This document shows positions 279-28,812 of a DNA stretch of 57,305 nt, piece after piece. Every line of letters starts with the position of its first letter. Position 1 is the stretch's first letter. The stretch is from Gemmatimonadales bacterium (GTDB lineage: Bacteria > Gemmatimonadota > Gemmatimonadetes > Gemmatimonadales > GWC2-71-9). The DNA lies in the NCBI GenBank assembly GCA_036781225.1, contig DAIQBJ010000002.1, positions 1 through 57,305 of the forward strand, in the 5' to 3' direction. The position numbers and the translations under genes were made by a program. Below the pieces are notes generated by a model. That model was not told the DNA's origin, made no database searches, and was given only the letters and a program-made list of their open reading frames with translations.

Positions 279-351
279 CTCCCGAGGCAGGACTCGAACC
301 TGCGACCCGCCGGTTAACAGCCGGCTGCTCTACCAACTGAGCTACTCGGGA
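279..351 (-). tRNA. tRNA-Asn (anticodon GTT)
   Basis: The reverse complement folds as a 73-nt cloverleaf. Its parts are acceptor UCCCGAG/CUCGGGA, D-arm GCUC-AGUUGGUA-GAGC, anticodon arm GCCGG-CUGUUAA-CCGGC (GUU), variable loop GGGUC, T-arm GCAGG-UUCGAGU-CCUGC and discriminator G. CCA is not encoded. Confidence 0.9.
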
Positions 352-12700: not shown

Positions 12701-12752
12701 GAACAGAAGTCCTTTTTTGAGAAGGGGTTATGCTAAGACGACGTGACTCGGG

Positions 12753-12780
12753 CTGTCAAGGTCGAGTCTCGACTTATATT
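12753..12780 (+). promoter_or_regulatory. Candidate promoter with an operator palindrome in the spacer
   Basis: A -35-like CTGTCA (12753-12758) and a -10-like TATATT (12775-12780) are separated by 16 nt. The spacer contains the perfect palindrome GTCGAG-T-CTCGAC (12761-12773). This is one of the few AT-rich patches in the window. Confidence 0.35.
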
Positions 12781-13128
12781 ATGCCGCCGATGCAGAAACG
12801 CTCGCCCATGGTGCGCACGACGCTGCTTCTCCTGACGCTGTTGCAGTTCGGCGTCCCGGCCGCCGCTGCATGGGCGGACGCTCGCCTCGAGCAGCGCAGC
12901 GGTCCCACGCACATCGAGTCGCACTCCACCGACGTCTGCGTCCGCATCCATCCGGCCGATTGCGCGTTCCATCGTTTCCTGAGCGCGCCGCTCGCGCGTA
13001 CCTCCCCGATTGTTGTGCGAATTCGCGAGGGGCTGGGAATGCGGTGGACGGCGCGAGCTCCTCGCGCCGCATGGGTTTCGTCGGGCGTCAACCTTCCCGA
13101 TTCGCGCGCTCCTCCGACGCTCTCCTGA
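12781..13128 (+). CDS. Small secreted His/Cys-motif protein, copy A (paralog of 21567-21902)
   Basis: The signal peptide is MVRTTLLLLTLLQFGVPAAAAWA, followed by the core ESHSTDVCVRIHPADCAFH and the C-terminal tail SRAPPTLS. The start is ambiguous: ATG 12781, 12790 or 12808, and the ORF track opens at 12730. Support for coding comes from paralogy with copy B and from its position 5' of the receptor gene. Confidence 0.55.
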   Translation: MPPMQKRSPMVRTTLLLLTLLQFGVPAAAAWADARLEQRSGPTHIESHSTDVCVRIHPADCAFHRFLSAPLARTSPIVVRIREGLGMRWTARAPRAAWVSSGVNLPDSRAPPTLS

Positions 13129-13230
13129 GTAACGGCGCCGCGTTCGCGGCGACCGCAATCCCATCGATCCAGCCGGCGCCGCGCGCTCGCACCGAGTGCG
13201 TGCGCCGAGGATTATGACCAGGAGAGCGCC

Positions 13231-15423
13231 ATGCATTTCCTTTCATTGCTTACGGCATTGCTGTCCGCGAGCACCGGGGTGGTATCCGGTCGTGTGACTG
13301 CGTCTGCCGGCGGACCCGTCGCCGACGTCCAGGTGTCCATTCCCGATCTACATCGATCCACCACGACTGACAGCGCTGGGCGCTACTCGATTACGGGTGT
13401 GCCGGCCGGATCATTCACCATCACGTTTCAACGCATCGGCTACGCGCCGGCGGTCCGTCGCATTGTTTCCACCGGTGCGGATGTCAGCGCCGACGTCACG
13501 ATGAAGGAATCGGTCGTCGAGCTGACCGGCATTCAGGTCACGGCGAGCGCCAATGCCACGAGCGCGCTCAACTCGCCGCAGCCGACGAGTATCGTGGCGG
13601 GGGACGAGCTGCGACAGGCTCAGTCACCGAGCCTGGGGGAGACGCTCCAAGGCATCGCCGGCGTGCACAGCTGGAGTACCGGCGTGGGCATCGGCAAACC
13701 GGTCATTCGCGGACTCACCTCCAACCGCGTGCTTGTCCTGGACGACGGTCAACGCCTCGAGACCCAGCAATGGGGTGATGAGCACAGTCCCAACATCGAG
13801 ACCGCCAATGCCGAACGGATCGAAGTGATCCGCGGGCCGGCGAGCGTGCTGTACGGCTCGGACGCCCTGGGCGGCGTGATCAATGTGGTCGAGAAAGACC
13901 TGCCCGACGCACAGGGCATGCGTGGCAGCGCGAGCGCCGCATACGGCAGCGCCAACAGCCTGTGGGACGGCTCACTCGACTTGGAGGGCAGTAGCGGCAG
14001 CGTCGCCTTTCGGGGCAGTCTGAGTGGTCGGCGCAGCAGCGACGTCCATACCCCGGAGTACGTGTTGTGGAACAGCGGGAACGAGGCTGTCGGCGGCAGC
14101 GGGACGATCGGATCGCGGGGATCGTGGGGCAGCCTCTCGGCAACGTTCTCACAGCGCAACGAGCGCATCTCCATGACGGACGAAGATCCAACGGCAACCC
14201 CGACACAGCGGATGACCACCAGTCATGGCCGCGTGGACTTCGCCGCACCGCTCGGCGCGGCTCGCCTGGAGGTGTCGACCGGGTATGAACGCAGCCGCCG
14301 GCGCGAGTTCGAGGATGATACGACGACCACCGTGGGATTGGGATTGCTGTCGCAGACCTACCTCGCGGATGTCCACTATCATCACGAGCCGATCGGCCAG
14401 TTCTCGGGCTTGCTCGGCTTTTCAGGATTGCGGACGACGTTCGACAAATTCGGCGAGGAAACACTGATCCCGCCGAGCCAGGTCAACAATGCGGGCCTGT
14501 ACGTGTTCGAGCAGTCTGAAGGACGGCGCACCAACCTCTCGTTCGGCGCGCGGTACGATTACCGGCACCTGGACGTCGACGCCGATCCAGCCCTGGGTAA
14601 CGGCGCCCGAATCCACACGTGGAACTCATTGATCGGGAATCTGGGTCTCCTGTTCCACCTCAGCGAGCCAACGGCGCTCGTGATCAACGTTGGCCGTGGC
14701 TTTCGTGCTCCCTCCTCGTTTGATCTCTATTCGAACGGTGTGCACGAAGGGACGGTGGCGTTCGAACGGGGCAATCCAAACCTGAAGACCGAAAAATCGA
14801 TCAACACCGATGTCGCGCTGCGTGCACAGTCGTCGCGCCTGTCGCTCGAGGTTGGCACGTTCCTGAACCTGATTCAGGATTACATCTACACGTTCCCGAC
14901 TGGCACGGTCGACAGTGCGTCCGGATTCCAGATCTATGACGTGACCCAGGGCGACGCACGTCTCACCGGCGTTGAAGCAGCGCTCCAGTGGCACCCGATG
15001 TCATACCTGCACATTCAAGGCACCGCCGACTATGTGAATGGACAGAACACGAGCACAAATCAGCCGCTGCCCAACATGCCGCCGTTGCGGGCGACCTGGA
15101 CCGTGCGGTATGAGCGTGGCGAGCGAGCCTATATATCCGTCGGCGGGGAATCCAACGCGCGCCAGTCGCGACTCGATCCTGCCGAGCGTCAGTTTTATGC
15201 GGATGCTTTTGGTGGAGCGGGGTATCAATCTCAACCCTACACACTGGTGAATTTCGGCGCCGGCGCCGGTTGGATCGTGGGAGCGCGCACCCTCAAGGTG
15301 GACCTGTCGTTGCGCAACGCGTTCGACAAGCGCTACGCGGATTACCTGAGTCGCATCAAGACCAACGCGATCGATCCAGGCATGGGACGCTCACTCATCG
15401 CACGCGTAACGACGGAGTTCTAA
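13231..15423 (+). CDS. TonB-dependent outer-membrane receptor with N-terminal carboxypeptidase-regulatory-like domain
   Basis: After the signal peptide comes a CarboxypepD_reg-like module (GRVTASAGGPVADVQVSIPDL..TDSAGRYSITGVPAGSFTITFQRIGYAP). Plug motifs are GIGKPVIRGLTSNRVLVLDDGQR and IEVIRGPASVLYGSDALGGVINVV. The beta-barrel ends in a terminal Phe. Confidence 0.9.
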   Translation: MHFLSLLTALLSASTGVVSGRVTASAGGPVADVQVSIPDLHRSTTTDSAGRYSITGVPAGSFTITFQRIGYAPAVRRIVSTGADVSADVTMKESVVELTGIQVTASANATSALNSPQPTSIVAGDELRQAQSPSLGETLQGIAGVHSWSTGVGIGKPVIRGLTSNRVLVLDDGQRLETQQWGDEHSPNIETANAERIEVIRGPASVLYGSDALGGVINVVEKDLPDAQGMRGSASAAYGSANSLWDGSLDLEGSSGSVAFRGSLSGRRSSDVHTPEYVLWNSGNEAVGGSGTIGSRGSWGSLSATFSQRNERISMTDEDPTATPTQRMTTSHGRVDFAAPLGAARLEVSTGYERSRRREFEDDTTTTVGLGLLSQTYLADVHYHHEPIGQFSGLLGFSGLRTTFDKFGEETLIPPSQVNNAGLYVFEQSEGRRTNLSFGARYDYRHLDVDADPALGNGARIHTWNSLIGNLGLLFHLSEPTALVINVGRGFRAPSSFDLYSNGVHEGTVAFERGNPNLKTEKSINTDVALRAQSSRLSLEVGTFLNLIQDYIYTFPTGTVDSASGFQIYDVTQGDARLTGVEAALQWHPMSYLHIQGTADYVNGQNTSTNQPLPNMPPLRATWTVRYERGERAYISVGGESNARQSRLDPAERQFYADAFGGAGYQSQPYTLVNFGAGAGWIVGARTLKVDLSLRNAFDKRYADYLSRIKTNAIDPGMGRSLIARVTTEF

Positions 15424-15424
15424 A

Positions 15425-17092
15425 GTGGCCGTGATCTCGCGAATCTCGACAATAGCGGCGGCCGGGGGTCTGGCCCTGGTCGCCGCGTGCGTCCATGACT
15501 CTCCTGGTCCCAGCCAGGGCGCCTGTACAGCACACGGAACCGACATCGCGCTCGCCGTTGCGGCGTATCAGTCGATCGATCCCGTGAGCGACTCCGGATG
15601 CGTCAACTTCCCGGCAAACGCTTCGACGATCGATTCGGCCGAGTACTTGGTGCTCCCGTGGTCGGCGGCGACGACGCCGATCGTTTCCGCGCCATTCTCG
15701 CTGGTCTCAGAGATGCCCGCCGCGTCGATCGCGATTCCGCAGATGGCATCGTTTGCGGGGGGAAGTCATGGCGAGGCGGCAGCAGCCTTCGACTATTTCC
15801 TCCGGGGGATGGCGCGGTCGCGGCGCTATCCGGTTGACCCCCGGTTCGCAGCAGCGCCGAGCGCTGGGCCGCTGGCAGCTACGACCGCCGGTCCCCCCAC
15901 TGTGGGGAGCGTGCGGACGTTCAAGGTCTGCTCGAATTTCACCTGTTCCAGCTTCGCGAGCGTCGGTGCCCGAGTACAGTCCGTCGGCCTGCACATCGCC
16001 ATCTATGTCGACACCACGGCGCCATCGCCCGGCCTTGCGACGGCCGACTTCGACTCCTTGCGGCAAGTCTTTGATACGCGGCTGTATCCCATCGATACGG
16101 TGGCGTTTGGGCATGTTTCCGATATCGACTCGAACACCGTCGCGATCGTGCTGATGACCGGTGTGGTGAACAAACTCGTCACCAAGTCGCGCTGCCACAG
16201 CAGCGGCTACATCGCCGGATTCTTCTTCTCCGGCGATCTGGACCCCATTGCCGCGCCGCAGTTCAACAACGGCGAAATCTTTTATTCGATTGTCGCCGAT
16301 CCGGATAGCACGCTGAGCTGCGCGCACTCCGCGCAGGACGTCATCCATACCACGCCCGTCACGTTCACGCACGAATTCCAGCACATGATCAACTTTGTGG
16401 AGCACGTGAGGGTGAAATCGGCGAACTCCGAGGAGGGGTGGCTCGATGAGGGGCTCTCGAAGTATGCGGAGGAGATCGCGGGGCGCAGTTATCTCGCCCA
16501 AGGCGATACGGCAACCTTCAGCCGCTACGCCATCGGATCGGTCTTTGATGCGTACCAGTACTTGCTCGCTCCCGGCAGTTCACCACTGCTGATTCCCGAG
16601 GACACCGGGTCGCTCGCGGAGATCGGAGCGAGCTGGCTCTTTGTTCGCTACATCGTCGATCAATTCGGGGATTCGTTACCAGGCAAACTGGTGCAGAGCA
16701 ATCTCACCGGGGCGGCGAATGTGCAGGGAAAAACGGGCCAGCCATTCGATCAGACAGTGAGCAGGTGGGCGTTGGCGAACTACGTCGCCGATCTCGCAGG
16801 CTTCACCGCCCCACCCGAGCTGCAGTACACGACGTGGCACTTCCACCGCACGTTTGCGTCGTTGCATACCCAGGACCCCACCGACTTTCCACGGGCGTAT
16901 CCGCTAGTGCCTCTCGTATCGGCAGGCAGCGCTCTCAACTTCACTGGTACGCTCCACTCCGGATCGGGCGAATACGTGCGAGCGGTGCAGCGACCGGGCG
17001 GCGCCGCATTCAGGTTGCATTTCAGCGGCCCCGGAGGCGCGCCGTTCCCGGCGACGATCGTTGCGCGCCTGGTGGTCGCGCGGATTCGCTAG
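15425..17092 (+). CDS. Lipoprotein with gluzincin (HExxH + E) metallopeptidase motif, M30/M1-like
   Basis: A lipobox (LALVAAC) is present. The motif HEFQHMINF..EEGWLDEGLSKYAEE resembles the M1-type HExxH..WLNEG Glu ligand. The GTG start lies 1 nt after the receptor stop. The stop overlaps the convergent gene stop (CTAG). Confidence 0.65.
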   Translation: MAVISRISTIAAAGGLALVAACVHDSPGPSQGACTAHGTDIALAVAAYQSIDPVSDSGCVNFPANASTIDSAEYLVLPWSAATTPIVSAPFSLVSEMPAASIAIPQMASFAGGSHGEAAAAFDYFLRGMARSRRYPVDPRFAAAPSAGPLAATTAGPPTVGSVRTFKVCSNFTCSSFASVGARVQSVGLHIAIYVDTTAPSPGLATADFDSLRQVFDTRLYPIDTVAFGHVSDIDSNTVAIVLMTGVVNKLVTKSRCHSSGYIAGFFFSGDLDPIAAPQFNNGEIFYSIVADPDSTLSCAHSAQDVIHTTPVTFTHEFQHMINFVEHVRVKSANSEEGWLDEGLSKYAEEIAGRSYLAQGDTATFSRYAIGSVFDAYQYLLAPGSSPLLIPEDTGSLAEIGASWLFVRYIVDQFGDSLPGKLVQSNLTGAANVQGKTGQPFDQTVSRWALANYVADLAGFTAPPELQYTTWHFHRTFASLHTQDPTDFPRAYPLVPLVSAGSALNFTGTLHSGSGEYVRAVQRPGGAAFRLHFSGPGGAPFPATIVARLVVARIR

Positions 17093-17715
17093 CGGGGGGC
17101 GGGCGCGATCGTCGGCGCGGTGTGATACAGCACCTGGACCGTCTGACGATCGCGGCCACTCGGCGCCGACACCTGCACGGCGGAATACATGATGTCTTGC
17201 TGTGCGGGACTTTCCTGTAACAATCCCAGCGTGTGCCCTAGTTCGTGAATCGTCACGCGCTGTAAACAGGCAGAAACCTGCGCGGCAGTGTAGACCTGCG
17301 CCGTCGTGATACGGATTTGCGTGTGAATCGGTTCCGCGAGCGCCGTGCCGGCACTGTCCAGCTGTAGGGTCGTGACGCCGTCGCACGCGAACACGGGCGG
17401 GCCGTTATCCGGCGGCACGTTCGGCGGCACGCTATCGAACCATGTCACGATCACGTCGGCCACGGTGGAATCGTTGACCATGTCACCCGAGAATTCGCCG
17501 TACAGGAGTTGATTCTCCCACGCCCCGATGGCGCGCGCGACAAGGTCGCGCATGTTGCTCCGTGTGTCGGCATAGTAGCGCACGGGCACCCGGCTCTCGG
17601 GCCAGCGGAACACGTCACCCGCAAAGTCGAAGCCATACCAGGCCATACGGTCGGGCGCAGCCGGCTCACTGCACGCCACCAGGAGCACGGCGCCGATGAT
17701 CAGTCGCCGTTTCAT
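17089..17715 (-). CDS. Small lipoprotein, matrixin/metzincin-like zinc protease fold with an atypical third ligand
   Basis: A lipobox (AVLLVAC) is present. The motif is IHELGHTLGLLQESPAQQDIMYS, that is HExxHxxGxxQ in place of HExxHxxGxxH/D. A Met-turn-like IMY follows. Confidence 0.6.
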   Translation of the reverse strand: MKRRLIIGAVLLVACSEPAAPDRMAWYGFDFAGDVFRWPESRVPVRYYADTRSNMRDLVARAIGAWENQLLYGEFSGDMVNDSTVADVIVTWFDSVPPNVPPDNGPPVFACDGVTTLQLDSAGTALAEPIHTQIRITTAQVYTAAQVSACLQRVTIHELGHTLGLLQESPAQQDIMYSAVQVSAPSGRDRQTVQVLYHTAPTIAPAPR

Positions 17716-18347
17716 GGCGCGGTTGCGCCTTTCCCGAGAATGCGCATCCCGATCCCCAGCGACAGGCGATGCACCAGCTGCGTCGAAGTGAATCCGTCGG
17801 CATGCAACGCCGCAGTCGAGAACCGGTGCACGTCATAGCGCAGCGACAGGCCGATGTCGTGTGCCACGCCGGCCGCCGCGGGCGTCCAGTAGAGGCTCGC
17901 GGTGCCGAGGGCCCACAATCCGGTACCGGCCCGAAACATTCCGATTGCTTCGCTCGGCAGATGCTTGATGGCGCCGAAACCCGCGCGTGCCGTGAGACCG
18001 TGGGCGATCTCGCGACGGACGCCGACGGTGAACGCGATCGTGGTCACCGAATTGAACTTGCTCGTGGTACCGCTCTCGTGGCGCTGCAGCGACGACCACG
18101 ACACGTCGAGATTGGCGTCGGGCGTCCACGGGCTGCTGCTGCGCTGACTGATGGCCAGCGCGAGCGCCGGGCCGACGGCGGCCTGCACGTCGACTGGAAC
18201 CACGATCGAATCGTGCACGAGCGGCGAGGTGTAGCGGGCGGCGACGGTGGCGTGGAGAGAGACCTGAGCGGTTAGGTGGTCAGGCAGAAAGGCGGTTAGT
18301 AAAGTGGCGATGGCAGCGCAACCGCCCAGCCCAACCATCCAGCTCAC
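17712..18347 (-). CDS. Small outer-membrane beta-barrel-like protein (hypothetical)
   Basis: The 211-aa protein has an N-terminal hydrophobic leader and alternating hydrophobic beta-strand patterns (ISQRSS..NLDVSWS, TIAFTVGVRREI, LSLRYDVHRF, HRLSLGIGMRI). Both its start and its stop overlap the neighbouring genes by 4 nt. Confidence 0.5.
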   Translation of the reverse strand: MSWMVGLGGCAAIATLLTAFLPDHLTAQVSLHATVAARYTSPLVHDSIVVPVDVQAAVGPALALAISQRSSSPWTPDANLDVSWSSLQRHESGTTSKFNSVTTIAFTVGVRREIAHGLTARAGFGAIKHLPSEAIGMFRAGTGLWALGTASLYWTPAAAGVAHDIGLSLRYDVHRFSTAALHADGFTSTQLVHRLSLGIGMRILGKGATAP

Positions 18348-19174
18348 GAACTCACCGCGGCATCACCGACACCCAGCTTCCGCAACACGCCGGCACCAAC
18401 CAGGACCAACCCATACATGCACACGATCAGCGGCCCTGTCGGGAAGTTGCCAACGTAGGAGATGTATAGTCCGAGCGCGGATGCGAGGGCGCCGGTACCC
18501 CATGAAATGAGCACCATCTTCTTGATGTCTCGGCTAAACAGGAAGGCCACGACCGCGGGCACGACGAGCATCGTGAACACCAGCAGCACGCCAGCGACGG
18601 GCACCGACATCGTGACGGCTACGCCGAACGACACGTAGAACAGAAAGTCCCACGCGCGAATGTGCCAGCCTTCGCGCTCCGCCTCGTCGGGGTGGAAAGA
18701 GATCTTGAGAAACTGTTTGCGCAAGGCGAAATGGAGCAATCCCAACCCCGCATACGCGGCCCCCTTCTTGACGATCGTGGGCCACGTGATCCAGATGATC
18801 GAGCCTTCCAGCACGTCGTGCAGCGCTTCCGCGCCGCGCGGGGCTTTGTCGGCGACCAGAATGGCCGCCGCCGACGCGGCCACGTATACGATGCCGATGA
18901 TGGCCTCATGTGGGACCCGCCCTTTCCCGCGGGTCCGGGTCAGCGCGAATAATGCCGCACCGATGCACGTAAACACGAGAGAGAAGATGAATGCCGTTCG
19001 TGAATCCGGCGCGACGCCATAGAGCAGGGCCACGACGCTTCCCAATCCCGCCATCTGTGCCAGGGACAGGTCGACGAAGATGACCTCCCGCGCGATGACA
19101 TGCAGGCCGAGGTACGAGTGAATGGCAACCAGCACCATGCACGCGACGAACGGCGCAAACATGAATTGCAACAC
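18344..19174 (-). CDS. Metal ABC transporter permease (ABC-3 / ZnuB-MntB-TroC type)
   Basis: The protein is hydrophobic with about 8-9 helices. The N-terminus FAPFVACMVLVAIHSYLGLHVIAREVIFVDLSLAQMAGLG fits ABC-3 permeases. I chose GTG 19174 as the start because it follows a GAGGGAGA Shine-Dalgarno-like sequence. The ORF-track start at 19252 would overlap the upstream gene. Confidence 0.75.
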   Translation of the reverse strand: MLQFMFAPFVACMVLVAIHSYLGLHVIAREVIFVDLSLAQMAGLGSVVALLYGVAPDSRTAFIFSLVFTCIGAALFALTRTRGKGRVPHEAIIGIVYVAASAAAILVADKAPRGAEALHDVLEGSIIWITWPTIVKKGAAYAGLGLLHFALRKQFLKISFHPDEAEREGWHIRAWDFLFYVSFGVAVTMSVPVAGVLLVFTMLVVPAVVAFLFSRDIKKMVLISWGTGALASALGLYISYVGNFPTGPLIVCMYGLVLVGAGVLRKLGVGDAAVSS

Positions 19175-19199
19175 GATTGTTCTCCCTCTCGGGTGGTGA

Positions 19200-20243
19200 C
19201 TAGCGGCCGGTGGTGGCGGTCGCCGTGAACGCCTCGGCGAGCGAGCCGACAATGGTGTTGATCAAATCGAAGAACGTATTCACGCCGGGCGCGCCACCGA
19301 CATTCGAAGGCACGATCACCGCCTTGGCCCCCGTGCGCTCGGCAACCTGGCGAATCTGGTTGTGGTCGAAGTATCCGGGGGACAACAGCACACGTACATG
19401 CCGCTGCTGCATCAGGTCGATCAGCTCGCGGACGTGCTTTGGCGTGGGCGGAATGCCGGGCTTCGGCTCGATGTAGTCGACGCAGGGAATCCCGAACTCG
19501 CGCGAGAAGTAATCCCATTCCTTGTGGTAGCACGCCATCTCGCTGCCGCGGAATACCATGCCCTGCTTGAGCCAGCCGCCGAGCCGGTCGGTGAGCGGGG
19601 CGCCCTTGTAGCGCCGCTGACTCAGGAAGTCGAACAACTTCCCCTGGCGGTCGAGATCAGCCAGTGTCTGGCCGCCGAGGAGGGAGACCAGCTCCTCGCC
19701 ATACAACGCGCGGTACACACGATCCTCGAAGTCCCGTTCACGGCTGGTGAAATAATCAGCGTTCTCCGGCGATACGCGCTTCAGTCCCGTGAGAATGTTA
19801 CGCGCGATCTGCACGCCGTTGAGCGGCTCGGTCCAGATATGGGGATTCCCGAATACGTGAATGTCCCCCTGCGTGCGGGAGTAGCTCGCCGGTACATCGA
19901 GCAGCTGGACACCGCTGTACGCGGCGACGTAGCCCGGCCCGCCTTCCGTCACCTTCGGGTTGCCGGCTTTGTCGAGCAGGGCGGGGACCCAGAGCTCGAG
20001 ATCGAGACCGGTGGTGACGAAGACGTCGGCGTTGGCGAGCAGCGGTACGAAGCTGGGCTTCGGCTGCACGTAGTGGGGGTTTTCGTCGCCCGTGGCGATC
20101 GCGTTGACCTCGCCGCGGTCGCCCACGATCTCGCGGGCGATGGCGGCATATGTCGTCAGCGAGGTCACGACCTTCACGGGTGCCGCGTGCGGCGGCGTAG
20201 GGCCGCCGGACAAACTCAGCAGCAAAGGAATGATGTGTATCAT
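19200..20243 (-). CDS. Cluster-A metal ABC transporter substrate-binding protein (ZnuA/TroA-like)
   Basis: Blocks VKVVTSLTTYAAIAREIVGD..AIATGDENPHYVQPKPS and IHVFGNPHIWTEP give the His ligand-type motifs. The start ATG 20243 (MIHIIPLLL...) overlaps the upstream stop by 1 nt. Confidence 0.8.
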   Translation of the reverse strand: MIHIIPLLLSLSGGPTPPHAAPVKVVTSLTTYAAIAREIVGDRGEVNAIATGDENPHYVQPKPSFVPLLANADVFVTTGLDLELWVPALLDKAGNPKVTEGGPGYVAAYSGVQLLDVPASYSRTQGDIHVFGNPHIWTEPLNGVQIARNILTGLKRVSPENADYFTSRERDFEDRVYRALYGEELVSLLGGQTLADLDRQGKLFDFLSQRRYKGAPLTDRLGGWLKQGMVFRGSEMACYHKEWDYFSREFGIPCVDYIEPKPGIPPTPKHVRELIDLMQQRHVRVLLSPGYFDHNQIRQVAERTGAKAVIVPSNVGGAPGVNTFFDLINTIVGSLAEAFTATATTGR

Positions 20244-21499
20244 CAGTAGGTCTCGTGTTTGTGTGGACCGATGGCCCAGACCGCCTGCAACGCGAACTGG
20301 TTGGTGGCGTTCACGCCCTCCACCTTCTCCCATCGATATTGAGCGCGCAGGAACACCCACTCGCTTTCCCACCATGTGAGCGTCGGGATGACCTGCTGCG
20401 TGATGGTGCCGAATTCGGGCGACTCGACGTAATCATACCGTACGCCGGCAATCCAGCGCTGGTCGAGCTTGTACGTGCTGCTGACGTAGCCGCCGAGGCG
20501 CGTCGGTCCGGTGCCGGCGATCTGCTTGCGGAGTGCGAGGAGCTCGCCTCGCAGCGTCCATTCGCGATACAGCGCCTGTGCAGGCGGTCGCCACGTGAGA
20601 CGGAAGTCGAGCCCCCCGACGCCGGTCTTCATCGTCGAGTCCGGATTGGTGCCATACAGCGCACTCGCTCCGATCTGCATGTACGTCGAGCGGCTGAGCT
20701 GCCAGAAGTTCAGCAAGTGCCCGAGATAGGTTGGCCGCCCGCTGCCGCCGAACAGCTCCGCGTCGCTCTCGCTGAGCGTCATTTGCACCGTCAGCTCGTG
20801 CGTGCCGAAGCCGCTGAACGCCCGGTACAGCGACAGTCCCGTGCCGGCGAGGCCATCCTCGCCGAGAAACGTTTTCAGCACGAGCGGATATTCGGTTTCC
20901 GGAACGGCGTGGAGATGCCAGCGATTCAGCTCGCCGAACTGCTGCCGGTACTTTCCGAGATCCAGACGCAAGTGGCCGGGCAGACCGGTCCAGTAGGCGT
21001 ATCCCTCCTCCACGCCCACGCTGCCGTTCTCGAACGACAGGAAGATCTTCGTGTGTGAGTAGGGATCGAGCGCTGACTGAAACCCGATCTCGAATTCTCG
21101 TGGCTCGAAGTTGTTGTGCTGGAGCTCACCGGTCGTGGCATATGCGCGCACATCGCCGGTGGCGCTGATTTCGGGGTTGAGCTGCGATTGATTTCGCTCA
21201 CGACCGACGAATTGACGCGCCGATGAGGTATCGGCGCGCTGCGTCGTGTCCTTGCCGATGACCCCGGCGGCGGCGGCCCGCAATGCGGCGATGTCGGTGT
21301 CTGCCGCAGCACGCGTCGTATCCGGCCGTATGCCGGAGCGGACCAGCGCCGCCCGCAGCGAGTCGAGGCGCGCACGGAGTGCGCGCACTTCGGCCGCCAG
21401 CGAATCCAGCTGCCGCTGTGCGGGTTGCTGCGCGCCTAGCTGGGTGGTGCAACACGCGGCTGCCAGCAATGCCGCGCATAGAGTGCGTGTCATGTTCAC
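20243..21499 (-). CDS. Outer-membrane porin-like beta-barrel protein with N-terminal coiled coil
   Basis: A signal peptide (MNMTRTLCAALLAAACCTTQLGAQQ) is followed by the heptad-like region LDSLAAEVRALRARLDSLRAAL. A long stretch of amphipathic beta-strand pattern follows, ending in an aromatic residue (..HETY). Confidence 0.6.
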   Translation of the reverse strand: MNMTRTLCAALLAAACCTTQLGAQQPAQRQLDSLAAEVRALRARLDSLRAALVRSGIRPDTTRAAADTDIAALRAAAAGVIGKDTTQRADTSSARQFVGRERNQSQLNPEISATGDVRAYATTGELQHNNFEPREFEIGFQSALDPYSHTKIFLSFENGSVGVEEGYAYWTGLPGHLRLDLGKYRQQFGELNRWHLHAVPETEYPLVLKTFLGEDGLAGTGLSLYRAFSGFGTHELTVQMTLSESDAELFGGSGRPTYLGHLLNFWQLSRSTYMQIGASALYGTNPDSTMKTGVGGLDFRLTWRPPAQALYREWTLRGELLALRKQIAGTGPTRLGGYVSSTYKLDQRWIAGVRYDYVESPEFGTITQQVIPTLTWWESEWVFLRAQYRWEKVEGVNATNQFALQAVWAIGPHKHETY

Positions 21500-21566
21500 T
21501 GTCCTCTCCTGTCATTACGAAGGACTGCTGAGCGCTCCGCGAGTCTGCGAAGCGGTCGCGACGACG

Positions 21567-21902
21567 TCAGGAGAGGAGCGTGGGTGGGGCTCGAGCGGGG
21601 GCCGCGAGTCTGGAAACCGAGCGGACGGATACAAACGACTGAGTGTGCGTGAACCGCACCCCGGCGAGTGGGATCTCGACGGTGAAAACCTGCTGCGCCA
21701 CAACGCGCGCGTTGGCGTAGTGGCAGAGCGCGCAGCGCAACTCGTCGTGCAGGATGGCGCACCGCGCGCTGTGGCTCGCTTCGACACCGGGGGGTGCCGC
21801 CACCACGTCGCGCGCATGCGCGAGCGTGACGGCGCCGCCGCCCAGCACCTGAATCGCGAGCAGCATCCCCAGCGCAGTACGTTTCAGCATGGTCTCCTTC
21901 AT
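21567..21902 (-). CDS. Small secreted His/Cys-motif protein, copy B (paralog of 12781-13128)
   Basis: The signal peptide is MLKRTALGMLLAIQVLGGGAVTLAHA, followed by the core EASHSARCAILHDELRCALCHY and the C-terminal tail ARAPPTLLS. The start overlaps the nfo stop (ATGA). Confidence 0.55.
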   Translation of the reverse strand: MKETMLKRTALGMLLAIQVLGGGAVTLAHARDVVAAPPGVEASHSARCAILHDELRCALCHYANARVVAQQVFTVEIPLAGVRFTHTQSFVSVRSVSRLAAPARAPPTLLS

Positions 21903-23491: not shown

Positions 23492-24904
23492 GTGCCGGAC
23501 CTCTTTCGTCATCGCATTCTCCTGCTCGGGAATCCCACGAGCCGGCCCGAAGGTCTCGAGCGCGTGCTCGTCGGAGGCGGTTTCCAGGTAACCGAAACCG
23601 CGGCAGGCCCTCCACCCGATTTCATTTTGTACACTCCCGATCCCGGCCTCACCAGCATCGCCGACGAAGTGCGCGCGCTCGTGACGCGCCCGGAGTACGG
23701 CGGCGCGCCGCTGTTCGTGCTGCTGGGCGCGGGCCGCTTCAACACGGCGACTGAAGCGCTCCTGGCCGGTGCGCGCGACGCCCTGGTTGCTCCCATTCAC
23801 CTCCCCGAGCTGCGCGCGCGACTGGACGTCCACATCCGCATGCGCACCGAGGTCCGCGAGGCGCAGGAAGCGCTGCGCGCCCGCGATCTGCTGTTCGACA
23901 TTTTTCAGGAGGTGTCCTCGGCGCTCCGCGCCGATGAGATCTTTCAAACACTGGTGCGGCGCGTCGGCCAGGCGTTTGGCCTGTCGCACTGCTCGTTCGT
24001 ACTGACGGCACCGGGGGAAGACAAGGGCAGAGTCGTGGCGGTGTACGAGAACCCGGCGATCCGCGATCTGCGCGTCGATCTTGCGCGCTATCCCGAAATT
24101 CAAGAGGCGATCCGCACGGAACGTCCCGTCGTGATTCACAATGTGCACGAGGATCCGCTGTTCGCGACGATCCGCCGGCATTGGAGCCAGCAGCACGTCG
24201 AGGTGAACGTGCAGGCCGCTGTGGCGCTGCCGGTGTTCGTGCAGGGGCGCGCGGCCGGCGTCTTCTTTTTGCGCACCGAGAAGGGCGATCCGCAGCTCAG
24301 GGCGGCGGACGTCGCCTTCGCGAATACGATCGCGCAGGCGGCGGCGCGGGTGCTCGAGAACGAAGAGCGGCGGTCGGCGATTTATCGCCGGCAGATCAGC
24401 GCCGGGACCACGGACGAGCTGACGGGGTGCGCCTCACTCGACGCGCTCGATCGGCGGCTGCGCGATGAATTCGAGCGCGCGCGCCGCTACTCGCTTCACT
24501 TCGCACTCGTGCTGATCGACATCGACCGCCTGCGGGACATCAACGAGCGTCAGGGCCAACCCGCCGGCGATCGCGTGCTCGGTGAGATCGGCGCGATTCT
24601 GCAGCGTGAGCTGCGGGCGCCGGACTTCGTCGCTCGCTACGGTGGTGACGAGTTCGCCTGTGTGCTTCCGGAGACGGATGGACCGGGTGGCCGCCGGTTC
24701 ATCGAACGGCTGCGCCAGGTTTTCACCCGTCATACGTTTGCGGATCTCGGTCCCACCAAGACGCCGACGATTTCCGCGGGCGTCGTGGCGTATCCCCACA
24801 GCGAGGTGCTCCGGCCCGAGGATCTGTTCACGCTTGGGGAAGGAGCGCTCCAGAACGCCAAGGACGCGCCCGACCGGATCGCGGTCGTGGGGGACACAAG
24901 TTAA
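23492..24904 (+). CDS. Diguanylate cyclase: pseudo-receiver, GAF and GGDEF domains
   Basis: The N-terminal receiver-like fold lacks the acidic pair (LLLGNPTS) and the conserved Lys (LVAPI). A central GAF-like region follows. The C-terminal GGDEF domain has an intact active site (ARYGGDEFACVL) and an RxxD I-site (RAPD) five residues upstream. Confidence 0.85.
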   Translation: MPDLFRHRILLLGNPTSRPEGLERVLVGGGFQVTETAAGPPPDFILYTPDPGLTSIADEVRALVTRPEYGGAPLFVLLGAGRFNTATEALLAGARDALVAPIHLPELRARLDVHIRMRTEVREAQEALRARDLLFDIFQEVSSALRADEIFQTLVRRVGQAFGLSHCSFVLTAPGEDKGRVVAVYENPAIRDLRVDLARYPEIQEAIRTERPVVIHNVHEDPLFATIRRHWSQQHVEVNVQAAVALPVFVQGRAAGVFFLRTEKGDPQLRAADVAFANTIAQAAARVLENEERRSAIYRRQISAGTTDELTGCASLDALDRRLRDEFERARRYSLHFALVLIDIDRLRDINERQGQPAGDRVLGEIGAILQRELRAPDFVARYGGDEFACVLPETDGPGGRRFIERLRQVFTRHTFADLGPTKTPTISAGVVAYPHSEVLRPEDLFTLGEGALQNAKDAPDRIAVVGDTS

Positions 24905-26010
24905 TCCAGCGTCTTCTGGAATCGCCTCACCGAAAGCGCAATGAGCAGCGTCGCCATGAACAACAGGATCGCGATCTCCCGCCACAGCTCGGGTAAGCCG
25001 ACCCCCTTCAGCAGGATTCCGCGCAGCACTTTAAGGAAATGCGTCAGCGGCAGCACTGCCCCAATCCATTGGAATACTGCAGGCATCGCCTGACGCGGAA
25101 ACATGAATCCTGACAGCAGGATGTTGGGGAGTACGAAAAAGAACGCGGCTTGCATTGCCTGCTGCTGTGTGCGTACGAGCGTCGAGACAAACAGCCCCAT
25201 CGCCAGACTCGCGACAATGAAGATGAACGCGATGGTGTAAAGCAGGAGCACGTTACCAGTCAGCGGCACATCGAAGACGAATCGGCCGAGCAGCAGCACC
25301 GTCGTCATCTGGACGAGGCCAACCCCGACGTAGGGCGCGATCTTGCCGAGCATGAGCTCTGTCTTTGTGATCGGTGTGACGATGAGCTGTTCCAGCGTGC
25401 CGCGCTCGCGCTCACGCACGATCGCCATGGCGGTTACCAGGACCAACGTCATGGTGAGAATCACGCCGACGAGACCCGGCACGATGTAGTTCGGGCTGCG
25501 TAAGCCCGGGTTGTAGCGCGGCCGCACTCGCGTTTCGAGCGGCAGCTCCGTGCGGTGCGCCGCGGCCGACAGGATCGCCAGGTTACGGATCTGGGCGACG
25601 CCGGCTGCTGCCGCCAGGGCCGCCTGCGACGACAACGGATCGGAGGCGTCAACGACGACCTGGATCGTCGCGGTCGTGCCGCGCGCCAGATCGCGCGGGA
25701 AGTCGTGCGGAATCGCGATGCCCGCCTGCGCGTCGCCCTTCCCGATCCACTCGTCGAGCGCATCGCGTCCGTCCACGTGCGCCACGATGCGGAAGTTGCC
25801 CGTGTTTTCGAATGCGGCGATCAGGTCGCGACTGGTCGGCGTACGCGATTCGTCGAAGACGACCGTCGGGATGTGACGCACGTCGGTCTGGATCGCGAAC
25901 CCAAACATCATCAGCTGGATGACGGGGACACCGACCATGATGCCCAGCGTGAGCCGGTCGCGGCGCATCTGAATGAATTCCTTGCGGAACATCGGGATGA
26001 AGAGCCTCAC
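24901..26010 (-). CDS. ABC-2 type exporter permease (YbhS/YhhJ-like)
   Basis: The 369-aa protein has one N-terminal TM helix, a large periplasmic loop and then five C-terminal TM helices. It is coupled to the ATPase gene by a 4-nt overlap. Confidence 0.8.
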   Translation of the reverse strand: MRLFIPMFRKEFIQMRRDRLTLGIMVGVPVIQLMMFGFAIQTDVRHIPTVVFDESRTPTSRDLIAAFENTGNFRIVAHVDGRDALDEWIGKGDAQAGIAIPHDFPRDLARGTTATIQVVVDASDPLSSQAALAAAAGVAQIRNLAILSAAAHRTELPLETRVRPRYNPGLRSPNYIVPGLVGVILTMTLVLVTAMAIVRERERGTLEQLIVTPITKTELMLGKIAPYVGVGLVQMTTVLLLGRFVFDVPLTGNVLLLYTIAFIFIVASLAMGLFVSTLVRTQQQAMQAAFFFVLPNILLSGFMFPRQAMPAVFQWIGAVLPLTHFLKVLRGILLKGVGLPELWREIAILLFMATLLIALSVRRFQKTLD

Positions 26011-26756
26011 GTTTGCTGCTCCTGCTCGTCCCGCTGCTGCAGAATGATGAACGCATCCTCGAGGTCCTGGCCGCCGACCTGCTGCGCGACTTCATCGGGC
26101 GTTCCCAGCGCAATCAGATGCCCCTGGCTGAGCAACGCGACGCGCCCGCACCGACCCGCCTCGTCCATGTAATGGGTCGTGACGATCACGGTGGTGCCTT
26201 GTTCCGTAGCCAGCCGATGGATGGTCTGCCAGAAGCCGCGGCGGGCCGCGGGGTCGACGCCGGCGGTCGGCTCGTCGAGGAACAGCACGCTCGGCTGGTG
26301 CATGAGGGCACACGCCAACCCCAGCCGTTGCTTCCAACCGCCTGACAGCGTTCCGGCGAGCTGGTCGAGACGGCGGTCCAATCCGAGAAACGCGACCACC
26401 TCGGCGATGCGGCCGCGGCGGCTGGGACCCTCGAGCCCGTAGATCCCGCCGTAGAAATCCATGTTCTCGGCGACCGTCAGGTCCTCGTACAGGCCGAACC
26501 GCTGCGACATATAGCCGATCAGCTCTTTGATCTTGTCGGGCGCTTCGCGGACGTCGACGCCGGCGACGATGGCCGTGCCCTCGGTGGGGGCAATCAGGCC
26601 GCACAACATCCGAATGGTCGTGGTCTTGCCCGATCCGTTGGGCCCCAGCAGTCCGAAGACTTCGCCTTTGGCGATGCTGAGATTCAGATCGCGCACGGCG
26701 ACGATGGGACCGTAGCGGCGGGTGAGGTGGCGAGTTTCGACGGCGACGTCGTTCAC
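26007..26756 (-). CDS. ABC transporter ATP-binding protein
   Basis: It has Walker A GPNGSGKTT, signature LSGGWKQRL, Walker B VLFLDEPTAGVD and an H-loop TTHYMDE. Confidence 0.92.
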   Translation of the reverse strand: MNDVAVETRHLTRRYGPIVAVRDLNLSIAKGEVFGLLGPNGSGKTTTIRMLCGLIAPTEGTAIVAGVDVREAPDKIKELIGYMSQRFGLYEDLTVAENMDFYGGIYGLEGPSRRGRIAEVVAFLGLDRRLDQLAGTLSGGWKQRLGLACALMHQPSVLFLDEPTAGVDPAARRGFWQTIHRLATEQGTTVIVTTHYMDEAGRCGRVALLSQGHLIALGTPDEVAQQVGGQDLEDAFIILQQRDEQEQQT

Positions 26757-27541
26757 GGCAACAGCGGTATTTCGACCCGTACCGGCATGCCGGCCTTCAG
26801 GCGTCCACCGGTGTCATCGATCGCGACTTTGATTCCGAACACGAGATCCGCGCGCTCCCGCTCGGTCAGGGCGGCGCGCGGCGTGAATTCGGCGCGTGGC
26901 GCGATTTCCGTGATGTGTCCGGGGAACGGCGCGCCGGGGTAGCCGTCCACATGGATCGTCACGGCCATGCCGGTCTTGAGCCGAGCCACGAACCGCTCGC
27001 CCACGTAGGCGCGGACCCACGGGGCCTTTACCAGGCCGATCGAAACGACGGGCACCCCGGCGGTGATCATCTCGCCGCGCTCGGCGAAGCGCGTCAGCAC
27101 GATCCCGTCGGCGGGAGCGACCAGCGTCAACTCGTCGCGGATCGACTCGGTGACTTCGGTGGCGGCATGGGCGGCCTGGGACTCGCGGACCGATGCACGC
27201 ACGGACTGCAAGCGCGCGGCGGTGGCCGCGGCGGCCGACTCCATGCGCTCGAGCTCCTGCGGTGAAGCAATCCCCTGTCTCGCCAGGACGCGCGCCCGCG
27301 CCAGGTCATTGGCCGTGCGCTGGCTGTCCGCCTGGGCGGCGAGGATTTCGGCGGTGCGCGTCGACGCGGCGTCGGCAAGCGCGCGGCGCTGTTCGATCAG
27401 GGCCGAGAGGCCGGGCTGGTTAAGAACCGCGACCGTGTCCCCCGCGTGCACCGAATCCCCTTCATCCTTGAGCAGGCGCTCCAGGCGCCCGGACGCGAGC
27501 GGACTGAGCCGGACTTCGCGGATTTCGACCGTGCCGGCCAC
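26753..27541 (-). CDS. HlyD/YbhG-type periplasmic adaptor, probably a lipoprotein with an upstream non-canonical start
   Basis: Barrel-sandwich and coiled-coil layout is present (VAGTVEIREVRLSP..GDTVAVL.., then a long helical hairpin). The in-frame upstream sequence encodes ..TTLALAAAALLVACGG (a lipobox), but the only possible initiator there is CTG at 27644-27646. The first canonical start is GTG 27541. Confidence 0.8.
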   Translation of the reverse strand: MAGTVEIREVRLSPLASGRLERLLKDEGDSVHAGDTVAVLNQPGLSALIEQRRALADAASTRTAEILAAQADSQRTANDLARARVLARQGIASPQELERMESAAAATAARLQSVRASVRESQAAHAATEVTESIRDELTLVAPADGIVLTRFAERGEMITAGVPVVSIGLVKAPWVRAYVGERFVARLKTGMAVTIHVDGYPGAPFPGHITEIAPRAEFTPRAALTERERADLVFGIKVAIDDTGGRLKAGMPVRVEIPLLP

Positions 27542-27597
27542 GGTGAGGACATTGCTCGCGCCACCGCATGCAACCAGCAGGGCGGCGGCCGCGAGTG

Positions 27598-28812
27598 CTA
27601 GCGTGGTGTCGAGGGCCGAGCGGTGCGAGAAGGGGGGCGTAGCCAGTTGCCCGGATCCAGCGCGATGCCGCCTTGGCCCCGGATCTCGAAGTGTAAATGC
27701 GGACCTTCATCGCTCGATTCGCCACCGACATGACCGATGACCTGGCCGCGGATCACGCGATCACCCTGCTTGACGGTCGCGTCGTTGAGATACGCGTAGA
27801 CCGTGTAATAACCGCCGCCATGGTCGATCAGCACGGACGTGAGATAGAGACCGAGTGATCCCGCGAGACTCACCGTACCCGGCGCGACGGCCCGAACCGC
27901 GGTGCCCACTGGCGCCCGGATTCCGATACCGTGGCGTGGAATACGCGTCTTGTTGGGGCCGGTCGTCGTACCGAACGGATAGATGATCATCCCCTCGACG
28001 GGCCAATCGAGTCCTCCCAGGTCGGCGGTCGTGATCGACCCCGTGGCGCTCGCCGCGCCGCGGGACTCGGCTTCCCGGCGCGCCCGCTCGAGCGCTTCGA
28101 CCCGGTCATTCAGCGCGCGCTCGTCCTTCTCGAGCCGCGAGAGCCGCTGTTCGGCCTGGCGGGCGTTGCGGCGCGTTTCGCGCAGGTTCGCTTCCCGCTC
28201 CTGCTCGAGCGCGAGGTAGCGGCCCAGCTCGTCCGTCCGCTCGCGCCGCCGCCTGGCCAGCGCCTCCCGCGCCTCGACGAGCAGCTGCCGCTGCCGCGCC
28301 ACCCGGTCCTGCAGCTTGTGCATGTCGTTGGTGAGCAGCCGGTCCTGCCGGCTCACCAGGAAGAGGTATTTGTAGCGCGACAACAGATCGCCGAAGCTCG
28401 CCGCTGCGAACAACACCTGCCAGCTGTAGAGCGGCCCGCGCTTGTAGATATCGACGAAGCGGCGTTCCAGGACCGCGCGCTTCTCGAGCAACGCATCCTG
28501 CGCGATCAGGAGATCGACGGTGATCTGATCGATTTGCCCGCCGAGGCCGGTGATCTGGCGGTCCAGTTCGTTGACGATGCGATTGGTGCTCTGCTTCTGC
28601 TGCTCGATGTTGGAGATCTCATCGGTGAGCGAGTGGGCCTGCGTGCGCAACCGCGACAGCTCTTGCTCGACTTCCGACCGCTCGCGTTTGATGTCCTCGA
28701 GCCGGCGCTGGTTGTCCTGCATCTGCTGCTGATACGTCGGGCGCTGGGCCGCTAGGGGCGGTGCTGTGAGCAGAGCAACCACGCACCAGGCACCACGCAC
28801 GGCTTTTTTCAT
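27598..28812 (-). CDS. envC: Coiled-coil murein hydrolase activator with C-terminal M23/LytM domain (EnvC-like)
   Basis: A signal peptide is followed by about 230 aa of coiled coil (QQMQDNQRRLEDIKRERSEVEQEL...). The C-terminal M23 domain reads GIGIRAPVGTAVRAVAPGTV..GPHLHFEIR. The gene sits immediately downstream of ftsEX. Confidence 0.8.
   Translation of the reverse strand: MKKAVRGAWCVVALLTAPPLAAQRPTYQQQMQDNQRRLEDIKRERSEVEQELSRLRTQAHSLTDEISNIEQQKQSTNRIVNELDRQITGLGGQIDQITVDLLIAQDALLEKRAVLERRFVDIYKRGPLYSWQVLFAAASFGDLLSRYKYLFLVSRQDRLLTNDMHKLQDRVARQRQLLVEAREALARRRRERTDELGRYLALEQEREANLRETRRNARQAEQRLSRLEKDERALNDRVEALERARREAESRGAASATGSITTADLGGLDWPVEGMIIYPFGTTTGPNKTRIPRHGIGIRAPVGTAVRAVAPGTVSLAGSLGLYLTSVLIDHGGGYYTVYAYLNDATVKQGDRVIRGQVIGHVGGESSDEGPHLHFEIRGQGGIALDPGNWLRPPSRTARPSTPR

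Follow-up and report, generated by a model that had tools for sequence, protein, structure and literature searches.

The DNA analysed here (the window) is a stretch of 57,305 nucleotides (nt) from a Gemmatimonadales bacterium (GCA_036781225.1, contig DAIQBJ010000002.1, positions 1-57,305), with a G+C content of 65% and with uncultured soil Gemmatimonadales genomes as its nearest public relatives. Its locus at 12730-21902 holds two operons on opposite strands, each headed by a gene for a small exported protein with a conserved His/Cys cluster; these proteins are called leader A and leader B below. On the plus strand, leader A is followed by a TonB-dependent receptor and an M30-like lipoprotein; on the minus strand, leader B is followed in order by a porin-like protein, a ZnuA-like binding protein, a ZnuB-like permease, a 211-amino-acid (aa) protein and an M10-like lipoprotein. 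A preliminary description of this DNA had proposed the locus as a candidate for an undescribed acquisition system, perhaps for transition metals, with A and B among its parts. All nine genes that it listed are present, and the locus is very probably a transition-metal uptake route leading from the outer membrane to the cytoplasm, the ZnuA and ZnuB families being confirmed by matches to PF01297 (E 5e-41) and ABC-3 PF00950 (E 6e-33), respectively. The signature of A and B, however, is that of regulatory arrest peptides of the CruR/CutF type, and we consider it probable that both are cis-acting regulatory leader peptides of the DUF2946/CruR/CutF kind, encoded by upstream open reading frames (uORFs) and each acting on its own operon, rather than transport components. 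This reading was built in silico from family signature, homology, synteny, and RNA complementarity together with its conservation; arrest, the direction of regulation, metal binding and metal identity are what we infer from it.

Probable leader peptides A and B

uORF A lies at 12790..13128 on the plus strand, with ATG 12790 as its probable start and in-frame alternatives at 12781 and 12730; uORF B lies on the minus strand at 21567..21890 (107 aa), or starts at 21902 (111 aa). The two share one plan, namely an export signal, an invariant His/Cys cluster, a poorly conserved stretch, the tetrapeptide RAPP, three or four further residues and a stop codon. Each N-terminus combines a K/R-rich stretch with a hydrophobic core and an AxA site, and the export signal, as read from the sequence, is MQKRSPMVRTTLLLLTLLQFGVPAAAAWADA in A and MLKRTALGMLLAIQVLGGGAVTLAHA in B, with R as the next residue in both. 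The putative metal-sensing motif of A (12910..12972, plus strand) reads H-I-E-S-H-x4-C-x3-H-x3-C-A-F-H and occupies invariant alignment columns; that of B (21723..21782, minus strand) reads E-x2-H-x3-C-x3-H-x4-C-A-L-C, its CxxC (C53-A-L-C56) being invariant or near-invariant among homologues. A c-type heme attachment site was considered for the C-A-L-C-H of B and ruled out, as the His varies between H and Q among close homologues. From the end of the His/Cys motif to RAPP there are 44 residues in A and 43 in B. The RAPP codons of A (CGC GCT CCT CCG, 13105..13116, plus strand) are invariant in all homologues and those of B (21582..21593, minus strand) in the B alignments; RAPP stands 3 residues ahead of the stop codon in A, whose C-terminus is SRAPP-TLS, and 4 residues ahead of it in B (ARAPP-TLLS). 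Across the A family, the invariant pattern is PxHIESHxTxxCxxxHPxDCxxHR ... SRAPPxLS. RAPP is a demonstrated ribosome-arrest motif (PMC10951233, PMC12992588).

That A and B are paralogues with a shared tail, as had been proposed, is borne out by pairwise BLASTP (26% identity, E 7e-4) and by hhalign of the A family against the B family (91% probability, E 1.1e-6, 102 columns), with RAPP in both, and it is this paralogy of two small His/Cys proteins that links the operons. Both genes are conserved in relatives, 396 for B and 206 for A, all of them annotated 'hypothetical'. An exhaustive profile search with the A/B family yielded 230 clusters (50% identity), 123 full-length representatives of which were used for signature statistics. 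The spacing between motif and RAPP is 42-45 residues (mode 44) in 116 of the 117 representatives that carry the motif; the arrest motif is RAPP in 112 of the 123 and RGPP in 8; the tail that follows is mostly 2-5 residues long (3-4 residues in 98/123); and CxxC is present in 109/123. Because the A-position leaders of two related loci, L043 (13610-13900) and L045 (13604-13830), retain CxxC (HPPDCALCHFL) and are intermediate between the A and B types, the CxxH of A is a derived variant.

The preliminary description had also pointed to DUF2946, and this pointer proved correct: 25 of 115 A/B-profile relatives match the Pfam family (PF11162) at E<=0.01, the best at 1.4e-7 and spanning the full profile. 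By transitive homology and shared architecture, A and B can be placed as outlying members of the DUF2946/CruR-CutF superfamily. In the prototype of the family (DUF2946/PF11162), CruR (Bp2923) of Bordetella pertussis, residues 90-93 form the CxxC and residues 139-142 the RAPP, which lies three residues from the C-terminus; more than 2000 family members keep the 45-residue spacing, which is functionally important (PMC9426467). An export signal (a signal peptide or an N-in transmembrane segment) is found in more than 95% of the DUF2946 family. The likeness to A and B extends from the Cys motif about 45 residues ahead of a C-terminal RAPP to the setting, a small exported protein encoded first in an operon with a TonB-dependent transporter, in an uptake system expected to be shut off by its metal. 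A and B differ from CruR in falling below the Pfam threshold, in having an extended sensor motif (H-x3-C-x3-H-x3/4-C-x2-C/H, with CxxH in A) and in their cargo, which has a porin and ZnuA/ZnuB and lacks PepSY and the other copper genes; nor is Gemmatimonadota among the phyla listed for the family.

A and B are each the first gene ahead of metal-homeostasis genes, from which a non-coding spacer of 102 nt (A) or 67-73 nt (B) separates them, an arrangement kept in 46 loci. An AlphaFold2 (AF2) model of B contains a helix at residues 2-30 and otherwise no confident fold (predicted local distance difference test score, pLDDT, 55; predicted template modelling score, pTM, 0.21), which, as far as a model can indicate, is more in line with a nascent-chain regulator than with a stable protein of the periplasm.

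Leader ends and the ribosome-binding sites of the next genes

In both operons the end of the leader, CUC-UCC-UGA, pairs with the Shine-Dalgarno sequence (SD) of the next gene, CAGGAGAG, in minimum free energy (MFE) folds of the leader 3' end and the intergenic region. In A, the last two codons and the stop provide the anti-SD, CTCTCCTG (13120..13127, plus strand), which pairs with the SD at 13219-13226, near the end of the intergenic region that separates uORF A from the receptor gene (13129..13230); the anti-SD of B, again CTCTCCTG and again formed by the last two codons and the stop (21568..21575, minus strand), pairs with the SD at 21504-21511 in the interval between uORF B and the porin-like gene (21500..21566). 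The anti-SD:SD helix encloses structured hairpins in both operons, and a G+C-rich hairpin lies directly 3' of each leader stop, at about 13134-13155 (plus strand) and at 21534-21553 (minus strand), the latter being 98% paired across 32 loci with two covarying pairs. The fold of the A region, compared with shuffled sequences, has z = -3.97.

The same pairing recurs in about 45 Gemmatimonadales loci, where it is accompanied by a strong synonymous-codon bias. Among 59 distinct leader ends from related Gemmatimonadales loci, the final Ser codon is TCC in 51/54 (vs 17% in the genes of the window), the preceding Leu codon is CTC in 41/47 (vs 40%) and the stop codon is TGA in 50/59. Of 58 related MFE folds, 46 have four or more of the six SD bases paired with the leader tail, and in distant relatives with other tails RAPP or tail codons still pair in front of the next start codon. 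RNAalifold, run on the B intergenic alignment, returns the central hairpin only; the long-range helix was tested explicitly, and its cells are 88% paired across the 32-sequence alignment (B), as against 41-64% when the partner is slid. In CruR arrest, the two Pro codons occupy the P and A sites (PMC12992588). With the same placement here, the anti-SD is located 9-19 nt downstream from the Pro codon in the P site, that is, within or at the edge of the ribosome footprint. Because the leader tail pairs with the SD in both operons, a ribosome stalled at RAPP would, by analogy, unmask the ribosome-binding site (RBS) of the next gene.

In the mechanism that we propose, the leader would be translated ahead of its operon, and the ribosome would arrest with the RAPP codons at the peptidyl-transferase centre, at which moment the His/Cys motif, 43-60 residues from that centre, would be just out of the exit tunnel. 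The stalled ribosome would cover the last codons of the leader, CUCUCCUGA, which are otherwise predicted to be paired with the SD. As long as metal is scarce, the stall would persist and the RBS of the next gene would be held open, allowing synthesis of the receptor in operon A or, in operon B, of the porin-like channel together with the ZnuA/ZnuB-like importer, whose genes are translationally coupled. Once metal is plentiful, it would bind the nascent His/Cys motif, and the resulting compaction would release the arrest; the ribosome would then terminate, the anti-SD:SD helix would re-form and expression would fall. The M30 protease and the pair of 211-aa and M10-like proteins are dispensable add-ons. 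A common small regulator had been offered in the preliminary description as an alternative view of A and B, and was its closest guess; the regulatory role stands, with the amendment that each leader would act in cis on its own operon.

The nearest parallel for this mode of control is CutF of Rhodobacter capsulatus (cutFOG; bioRxiv 10.1101/2025.02.05.636593, 10.1101/2022.11.11.516240), likewise an exported leader of the DUF2946 family, where the RBS of the next gene, cutO, is shielded by an mRNA structure until a ribosome stalls at a C-terminal Pro-rich motif and melts it. CutF differs in its motifs (CxxxC and PPP, not RAPP), in controlling a detoxifying multicopper oxidase, and in that metal induces its stalling, whereas metal is expected to relieve that of A and B; the compartment sensed also varies between the characterised proteins, CutF responding to periplasmic copper during co-translational export and CruR acting in the cytoplasm. 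In SecM-secA and ApdA/ApdP (PMC10951233, PMC7897499, PMC10987492), too, an exported leader arrests at R-A-(G/P)-P a few codons before its stop and the stalled ribosome opens a structure hiding a downstream SD, but these leaders serve to monitor the secretion machinery and pulling by the translocon frees them, while A and B have a metal-ligand motif at a fixed distance from RAPP and metal-transport genes downstream.

The same leaders might instead exert control in the manner of Bordetella CruR, with the RAPP stall blocking Rho-dependent termination in the intergenic region rather than unmasking an RBS. We regard this alternative as rather unlikely but as the strongest rival. Among characterised relatives at the head of an uptake operon, the closest one has been shown by experiment to work in this way (PMC9426467); the family typically has long intergenic regions, that of CruR measuring 162 nt, and untranslated RNA downstream of the leader would be exposed to Rho in any case. 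We nevertheless rank RBS unmasking above it, because a rut site at which Rho would load is C-rich and unstructured, whereas the intergenic regions of B and A, with lengths of 67 and 102 nt, are short, contain G and C in near-equal numbers (21/21 and 35/38) and are strongly folded. In addition, the RBS is predicted to be masked by the leader's own last codons, and purely Rho-based control has no need of anti-SD:SD pairing or of codon bias. The two mechanisms may also act together.

Several points weigh against the leader-peptide reading with RBS unmasking. A lacks CxxC, the functional hallmark of CruR, and has C-A-F/L-H in its place, as do all 19 aligned A-type homologues. Neither A nor B matches Pfam PF11162 (cut-off 23.7 bits) at E<=0.1, and their close homologues reach DUF2946 at E 0.28 at best. 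On the RNA side, the B region by itself does not fold significantly better than shuffled sequences (z = -1.67); the anti-SD:SD helix lacks double-sided covariation, its SD side being constrained anyway, and its support thus comes from conservation and codon bias in mutually related genomes rather than from independent compensatory change. When the ribosome footprint is blocked in silico, the SD is still predicted to pair elsewhere in 33/58 cases. The direction of regulation is assumed from the logic of uptake and from the CruR precedent, and CutF works in the opposite direction. Finally, an ABC ATPase (ABC_tran) gene is absent from the B operon in the window and in the related loci examined. 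The sole ATPase nearby (26007-26756) belongs to an ABC-2/HlyD exporter, and the ATPase for the ZnuA/ZnuB-like importer must be encoded elsewhere.

Upstream of leader A, a conserved -10-like TAATAT/TATATT ends 7-9 nt ahead of ATG 12790, with no SD at 12753-12792; A has its own promoter region, and its sequence suggests that uORF A may be translated from a leaderless or near-leaderless mRNA. The -10-like site overlaps face-to-face with a TTGACA-18-TAGCAT promoter-like site of maeB (minus strand). A palindrome in this region, GTCGAGTCTCGAC (12761-12773), was considered as a Zur/Fur-type operator and dropped: it is not enriched in the window, only its GAGTC core is kept in other loci, and most of what is conserved there belongs to the divergent maeB promoter. 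On the other side, the start region of uORF B (21890-21902, minus strand) adjoins or shares nucleotides with the stop codon of nfo, the endonuclease IV gene, and no promoter-like site was found ahead of B. To judge by this arrangement, the B operon may be co-transcribed with the housekeeping genes pcm-nfo, and leader B may on that account be its main control point. An Rfam search found no known riboswitch or other family in the A/B locus, the only match in the window being a tRNA gene (279-351, minus strand; RF00005, 71.6 bits).

Downstream genes and conservation of the locus

The receptor (13231..15423, plus strand) is composed of CarboxypepD_reg, Plug and TonB-dependent barrel domains. Cysteine is absent from its sequence, and a His lies between its FRAP box (residue 491) and its NPNL box (residue 515). 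Among solved structures its best match is ZnuD (4rdr, E 7e-28), followed by PhuR (4e-18) and OprC (1e-15); against the ZnuD equivalog NF038289 it scores 167 bits, far short of the 950-bit cut-off, and its best NCBIfam models are heme/hemoglobin receptors (179 and 172 bits). These similarities place it in the broad clade of ZnuD rather than as an equivalog.

On the minus strand, the porin-like protein (416-418 aa; 20243..21493, open reading frame to 21499) has an N-terminal coiled coil. Its AF2 model combines N-terminal helices with a barrel of about 16-18 strands (pLDDT 56), and Foldseek retrieves OmpT, OprP and the coiled-coil porin DcaP at template modelling (TM) scores of 0.4-0.5, which together support a porin-like barrel and nothing finer. 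The protein contains invariant His motifs, NRWHLHA(V)PETEYP and a C-terminal GPHKHETY, which could line a metal-selective channel. The ZnuA-like protein (open reading frame 19200..20375; probable start ATG 20243, overlapping the stop codon of the porin gene) has the zinc protein AztC as its best NCBIfam match. Its candidate ligands, His101, His179, His284 and Asp337 in the numbering of the open reading frame, align with His67, His139, Glu205 and Asp280 of PsaA, and the His/His/His/Asp site is invariant in 33-36 homologues. The permease gene (18344..19252) probably has its true start near 19162-19174; its product has an anchored-repeat ABC permease model as best NCBIfam match and the zinc protein AztB as second (68 bits).

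Each operon closes with a lipoprotein bearing an HExxH motif, as had been noted, and the stop codons of both terminal genes do fall within the CTAG at 17089-17092. The plus-strand lipoprotein (555 aa; 15425..17092) has the lipobox LVAAC and the motif HEFQH...EGWLDEG; it matches lugdulysin (7bb8, E 6e-9) over an alignment that covers the HExxH region, in keeping with the suggested MEROPS family M30, its Pfam match to Peptidase_MA_2 being weak. HEFQHMINF...EGWLDEGLS is kept in 15 homologues, and from these motifs the protein is apparently an active HExxH+E metalloprotease. The minus-strand, metzincin-like lipoprotein (17089..17715) has the lipobox LVAC and HELGHTLGL, and scores 30.7 bits against Pfam Peptidase_M10 (PF00413; cut-off 24 bits); a PDB search found no sequence relatives. 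It contains HExxHxxG and a D-I-M-Y Met-turn, with the third zinc ligand one residue later than in the canonical HExxHxxGxxH; the window and its nearest relatives have Glu here (HELGHTLGLLQES), most of the remaining homologues His (HELGHTLGILTHS). These accessory proteases might release metal from proteins or process envelope components. The exported 211-aa protein (17712..18347, minus strand), which had been labelled a small barrel, is present as a gene and yields no match in Pfam, NCBIfam or PDB searches; the barrel label is unsupported by any library, and a small outer-membrane barrel is possible.

Conservation of this arrangement was surveyed in 46 Gemmatimonadales loci, three loci fetched individually and the window; 25 of these (24 relatives and the window) are complete between ZnuB and maeB. 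The genome scan used the close B alignment, as that of the broad family had no stretch conserved enough, so the census describes B-like leaders in Gemmatimonadales; a weak Pirellulaceae match (L048), without any of the locus genes, was left out. The order pcm-nfo-B-porin-ZnuA-ZnuB is found in every locus long enough to show it, and the porin-like gene always directly follows uORF B. In the lineage of L051, the leader is 32% identical to B with the core kept, and nfo is replaced by a gene on the opposite strand. The neighbouring stretch at 23492-28812 encodes a GAF-GGDEF diguanylate cyclase, an ABC-2 permease/ATPase/HlyD-type exporter and an M23 peptidase, in an order kept in related contigs (cf. 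L051).

An A-type leader is present in 15 of the 25 complete loci and absent from 10, and is always followed by a TonB-receptor-like gene. In L003 this gene (16593-18920, minus strand) encodes a different protein of 776 aa with weak TonB-receptor similarity, and the receptor of the window is also missing between the A-type leader and M30 in L025, L035, L043 and L045 (the 776-aa protein was inspected in L003 only), which points to non-orthologous replacement of the receptor under an A-type leader. The preliminary description had raised a constant association of small-protein homologues with an outer-membrane barrel gene and with HExxH lipoproteins nearby; the first holds without exception for B with the porin and A with the receptor-like gene, and the lipoproteins are variable. 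M30 occurs in 16/25 complete loci, 4 of them without an A module, and 3 A-receptor modules lack M30; the 211-aa and M10 genes are found strictly together, in 15/25; and L009 has neither M30 nor the 211-aa/M10 pair. Where present, the A module always lies between ZnuB and maeB, and in L043 and L045 the A-receptor-M30 module is co-directional inside the B operon, between ZnuB and the 211-aa gene. The conserved core is uORF B, the porin-like channel and the ZnuA-like and ZnuB-like genes. Because the A module, M30 and the 211-aa/M10 pair come and go between genomes, the mirrored layout and the closing HExxH lipoproteins, both of which had been read as integral, are features of this genome and not of the system. 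The recurrent adjacency of the A and B modules argues for a shared function.

Identity of the metal and significance

Zinc is indicated by the three His and one Asp of the binding-protein site, by ZnuD as the closest solved relative of the receptor and by the CxxH in A. Among cluster A-I proteins, a site with three His (completed by Asp, Glu or water) is typical of the zinc type, and two His with Glu and Asp of the Mn/Fe type; the rule is not absolute, as a TroA-type site of three His and Asp can also bind Mn or Fe. We take Zn(II), with modest confidence, as the most likely metal; other metals or heme are clearly less probable, and copper is slightly less probable again. Zinc is opposed by the receptor, which scores equally well on heme-receptor models and carries the FRAP and NPNL boxes, by the copper-type CxxC kept in B, by equivalog scores that all lie far below their cut-offs, and by the capacity of the binding-protein site for Mn or Fe.

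The locus has clear counterparts among Zur-regulated zinc systems, namely ZnuD with ZnuABC in Neisseria and znuGHI/znuK in Caulobacter (PMC4176598), with which it shares a ZnuD-clade receptor, a cluster A-I binding protein and an ABC-3 permease. It differs from these in the absence of a ZnuC ATPase from the operon and of an identified Zur box, in control that is apparently post-transcriptional and exerted by leader peptides, and in having an additional dedicated porin-like channel and optional metalloprotease lipoproteins.

Copper would be the metal expected from precedent, as every characterised DUF2946 member handles it: CruR and CutF both sense copper via Cys motifs, CxxC is kept in B and in most family members, and the RAPP-uORF classes reported so far are copper-related or TonB-related. 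We still think a copper system unlikely here. Neither operon contains PepSY, YcnI, CopC, PCuAC, Sco or the OprC signature, which are the hallmarks listed for CruR operons; the receptor is much closer to ZnuD than to OprC and, because it has no Cys, is without an OprC-type copper site; the site of the binding protein is all His/Asp, with no Met or Cys; A has CxxH instead of CxxC; and DUF2946 genes also head the Zn/Cd efflux operon czrCBA, as found in the Caulobacter Zur study (PMC4176598).

More doubtful still is the possibility that the plus-strand module scavenges heme, protein or peptides, with the receptor and M30 degrading hemoproteins or metalloproteins, and is merely adjacent to the ZnuAB module. 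The heme/hemoglobin scores and boxes of the receptor, the apparently active protease that follows it and the 10 complete loci in which the B operon works without an A module are in its favour. It is at odds with the constant position of the A module between ZnuB and maeB (inside the B operon in L043 and L045), with the paralogy of the leaders, with the presence of ZnuD, the best solved match, in the same receptor clade, and with the separability of the proposed partners, M30 lacking a receptor in 4 loci and the receptor lacking M30 in 3. Least probable of all is a role in which A and B, once exported, bind metal in the periplasm and, as chaperones or metallophore-like shuttles, feed the receptor, channel or binding protein, with RAPP as a docking or sorting tag, for although both have export signals and conserved His/Cys clusters, and the completed peptide is exported so that a dual role is possible, this view leaves unexplained the constancy of RAPP and of its distance from the stop (3-4 codons), the fixed spacing of 42-45 residues, the nucleotide-level constraint on the tail codons and the tail:SD pairing, and it sits poorly with a motif-RAPP region that is weakly conserved and without a confident fold, and with the demonstrated regulatory role of homologous proteins.

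With A and B read as regulatory leaders, the 'undescribed acquisition system' is largely explained by recent literature. The regulatory principle is published (PMC9426467; bioRxiv 10.1101/2025.02.05.636593), and the claim of novelty stands for the cargo, the phylum and possibly the metal. RAPP uORFs upstream of TonB-dependent receptors are reported to be widespread, and uORF A fits the surveyed class of RAPP/RGPP uORFs exactly, with its signal sequence, C-terminal RAPP and TonB receptor (PMC12992588); it is essentially a new member of that class with CxxH. The text of the survey names copper- and TonB-related classes and does not mention zinc, ABC importers, porins or Gemmatimonadota, and uORF B, ahead of a porin and ZnuAB, has no counterpart named in it (PMC12992588). 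New are uORF B with its porin-ZnuA-ZnuB cargo, the presence of two paralogous leaders at a single locus, an anti-SD contained in the terminal codons and the Gemmatimonadota setting; a ZnuD-like receptor and M30 as receptor-type cargo under leader A are likewise undescribed.

Metal-sensing arrest peptides are a very recent finding, and the two that have been studied, CruR and CutF, are both copper sensors in Proteobacteria. The present leaders extend the design (export signal, ligand motif, spacer of 43-45 residues, RAPP and short tail) to a poorly studied phylum and beyond the reach of Pfam, and they precede cargo of another kind, a cluster A-I ABC importer that has a porin-like channel of its own. 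For annotation, conserved 'hypothetical proteins' of the A/B type would be better labelled regulatory leaders, and further members could be sought with a simple sequence rule based on the anti-SD tail.

No zinc-responsive arrest peptide came up in a search of the literature. As a tentative proposal, A and B may be the first, paralogous nascent-chain zinc sensors (one with CxxC, one with the derived CxxH) that gate a complete zinc import route from outer membrane to cytoplasm in Gemmatimonadales by RBS unmasking via their own last codons, possibly in place of Zur-type control; if so, that route would comprise a ZnuD-like receptor, a dedicated porin-like channel and ZnuA/ZnuB. Nascent-chain sensing would then count as a general means of metal homeostasis rather than one confined to copper, and the natural CxxC/CxxH leader pair within one genome would provide a compact system for learning how metal specificity, and the release of RAPP arrest, depend on the chemistry of the ligands at the tunnel exit.

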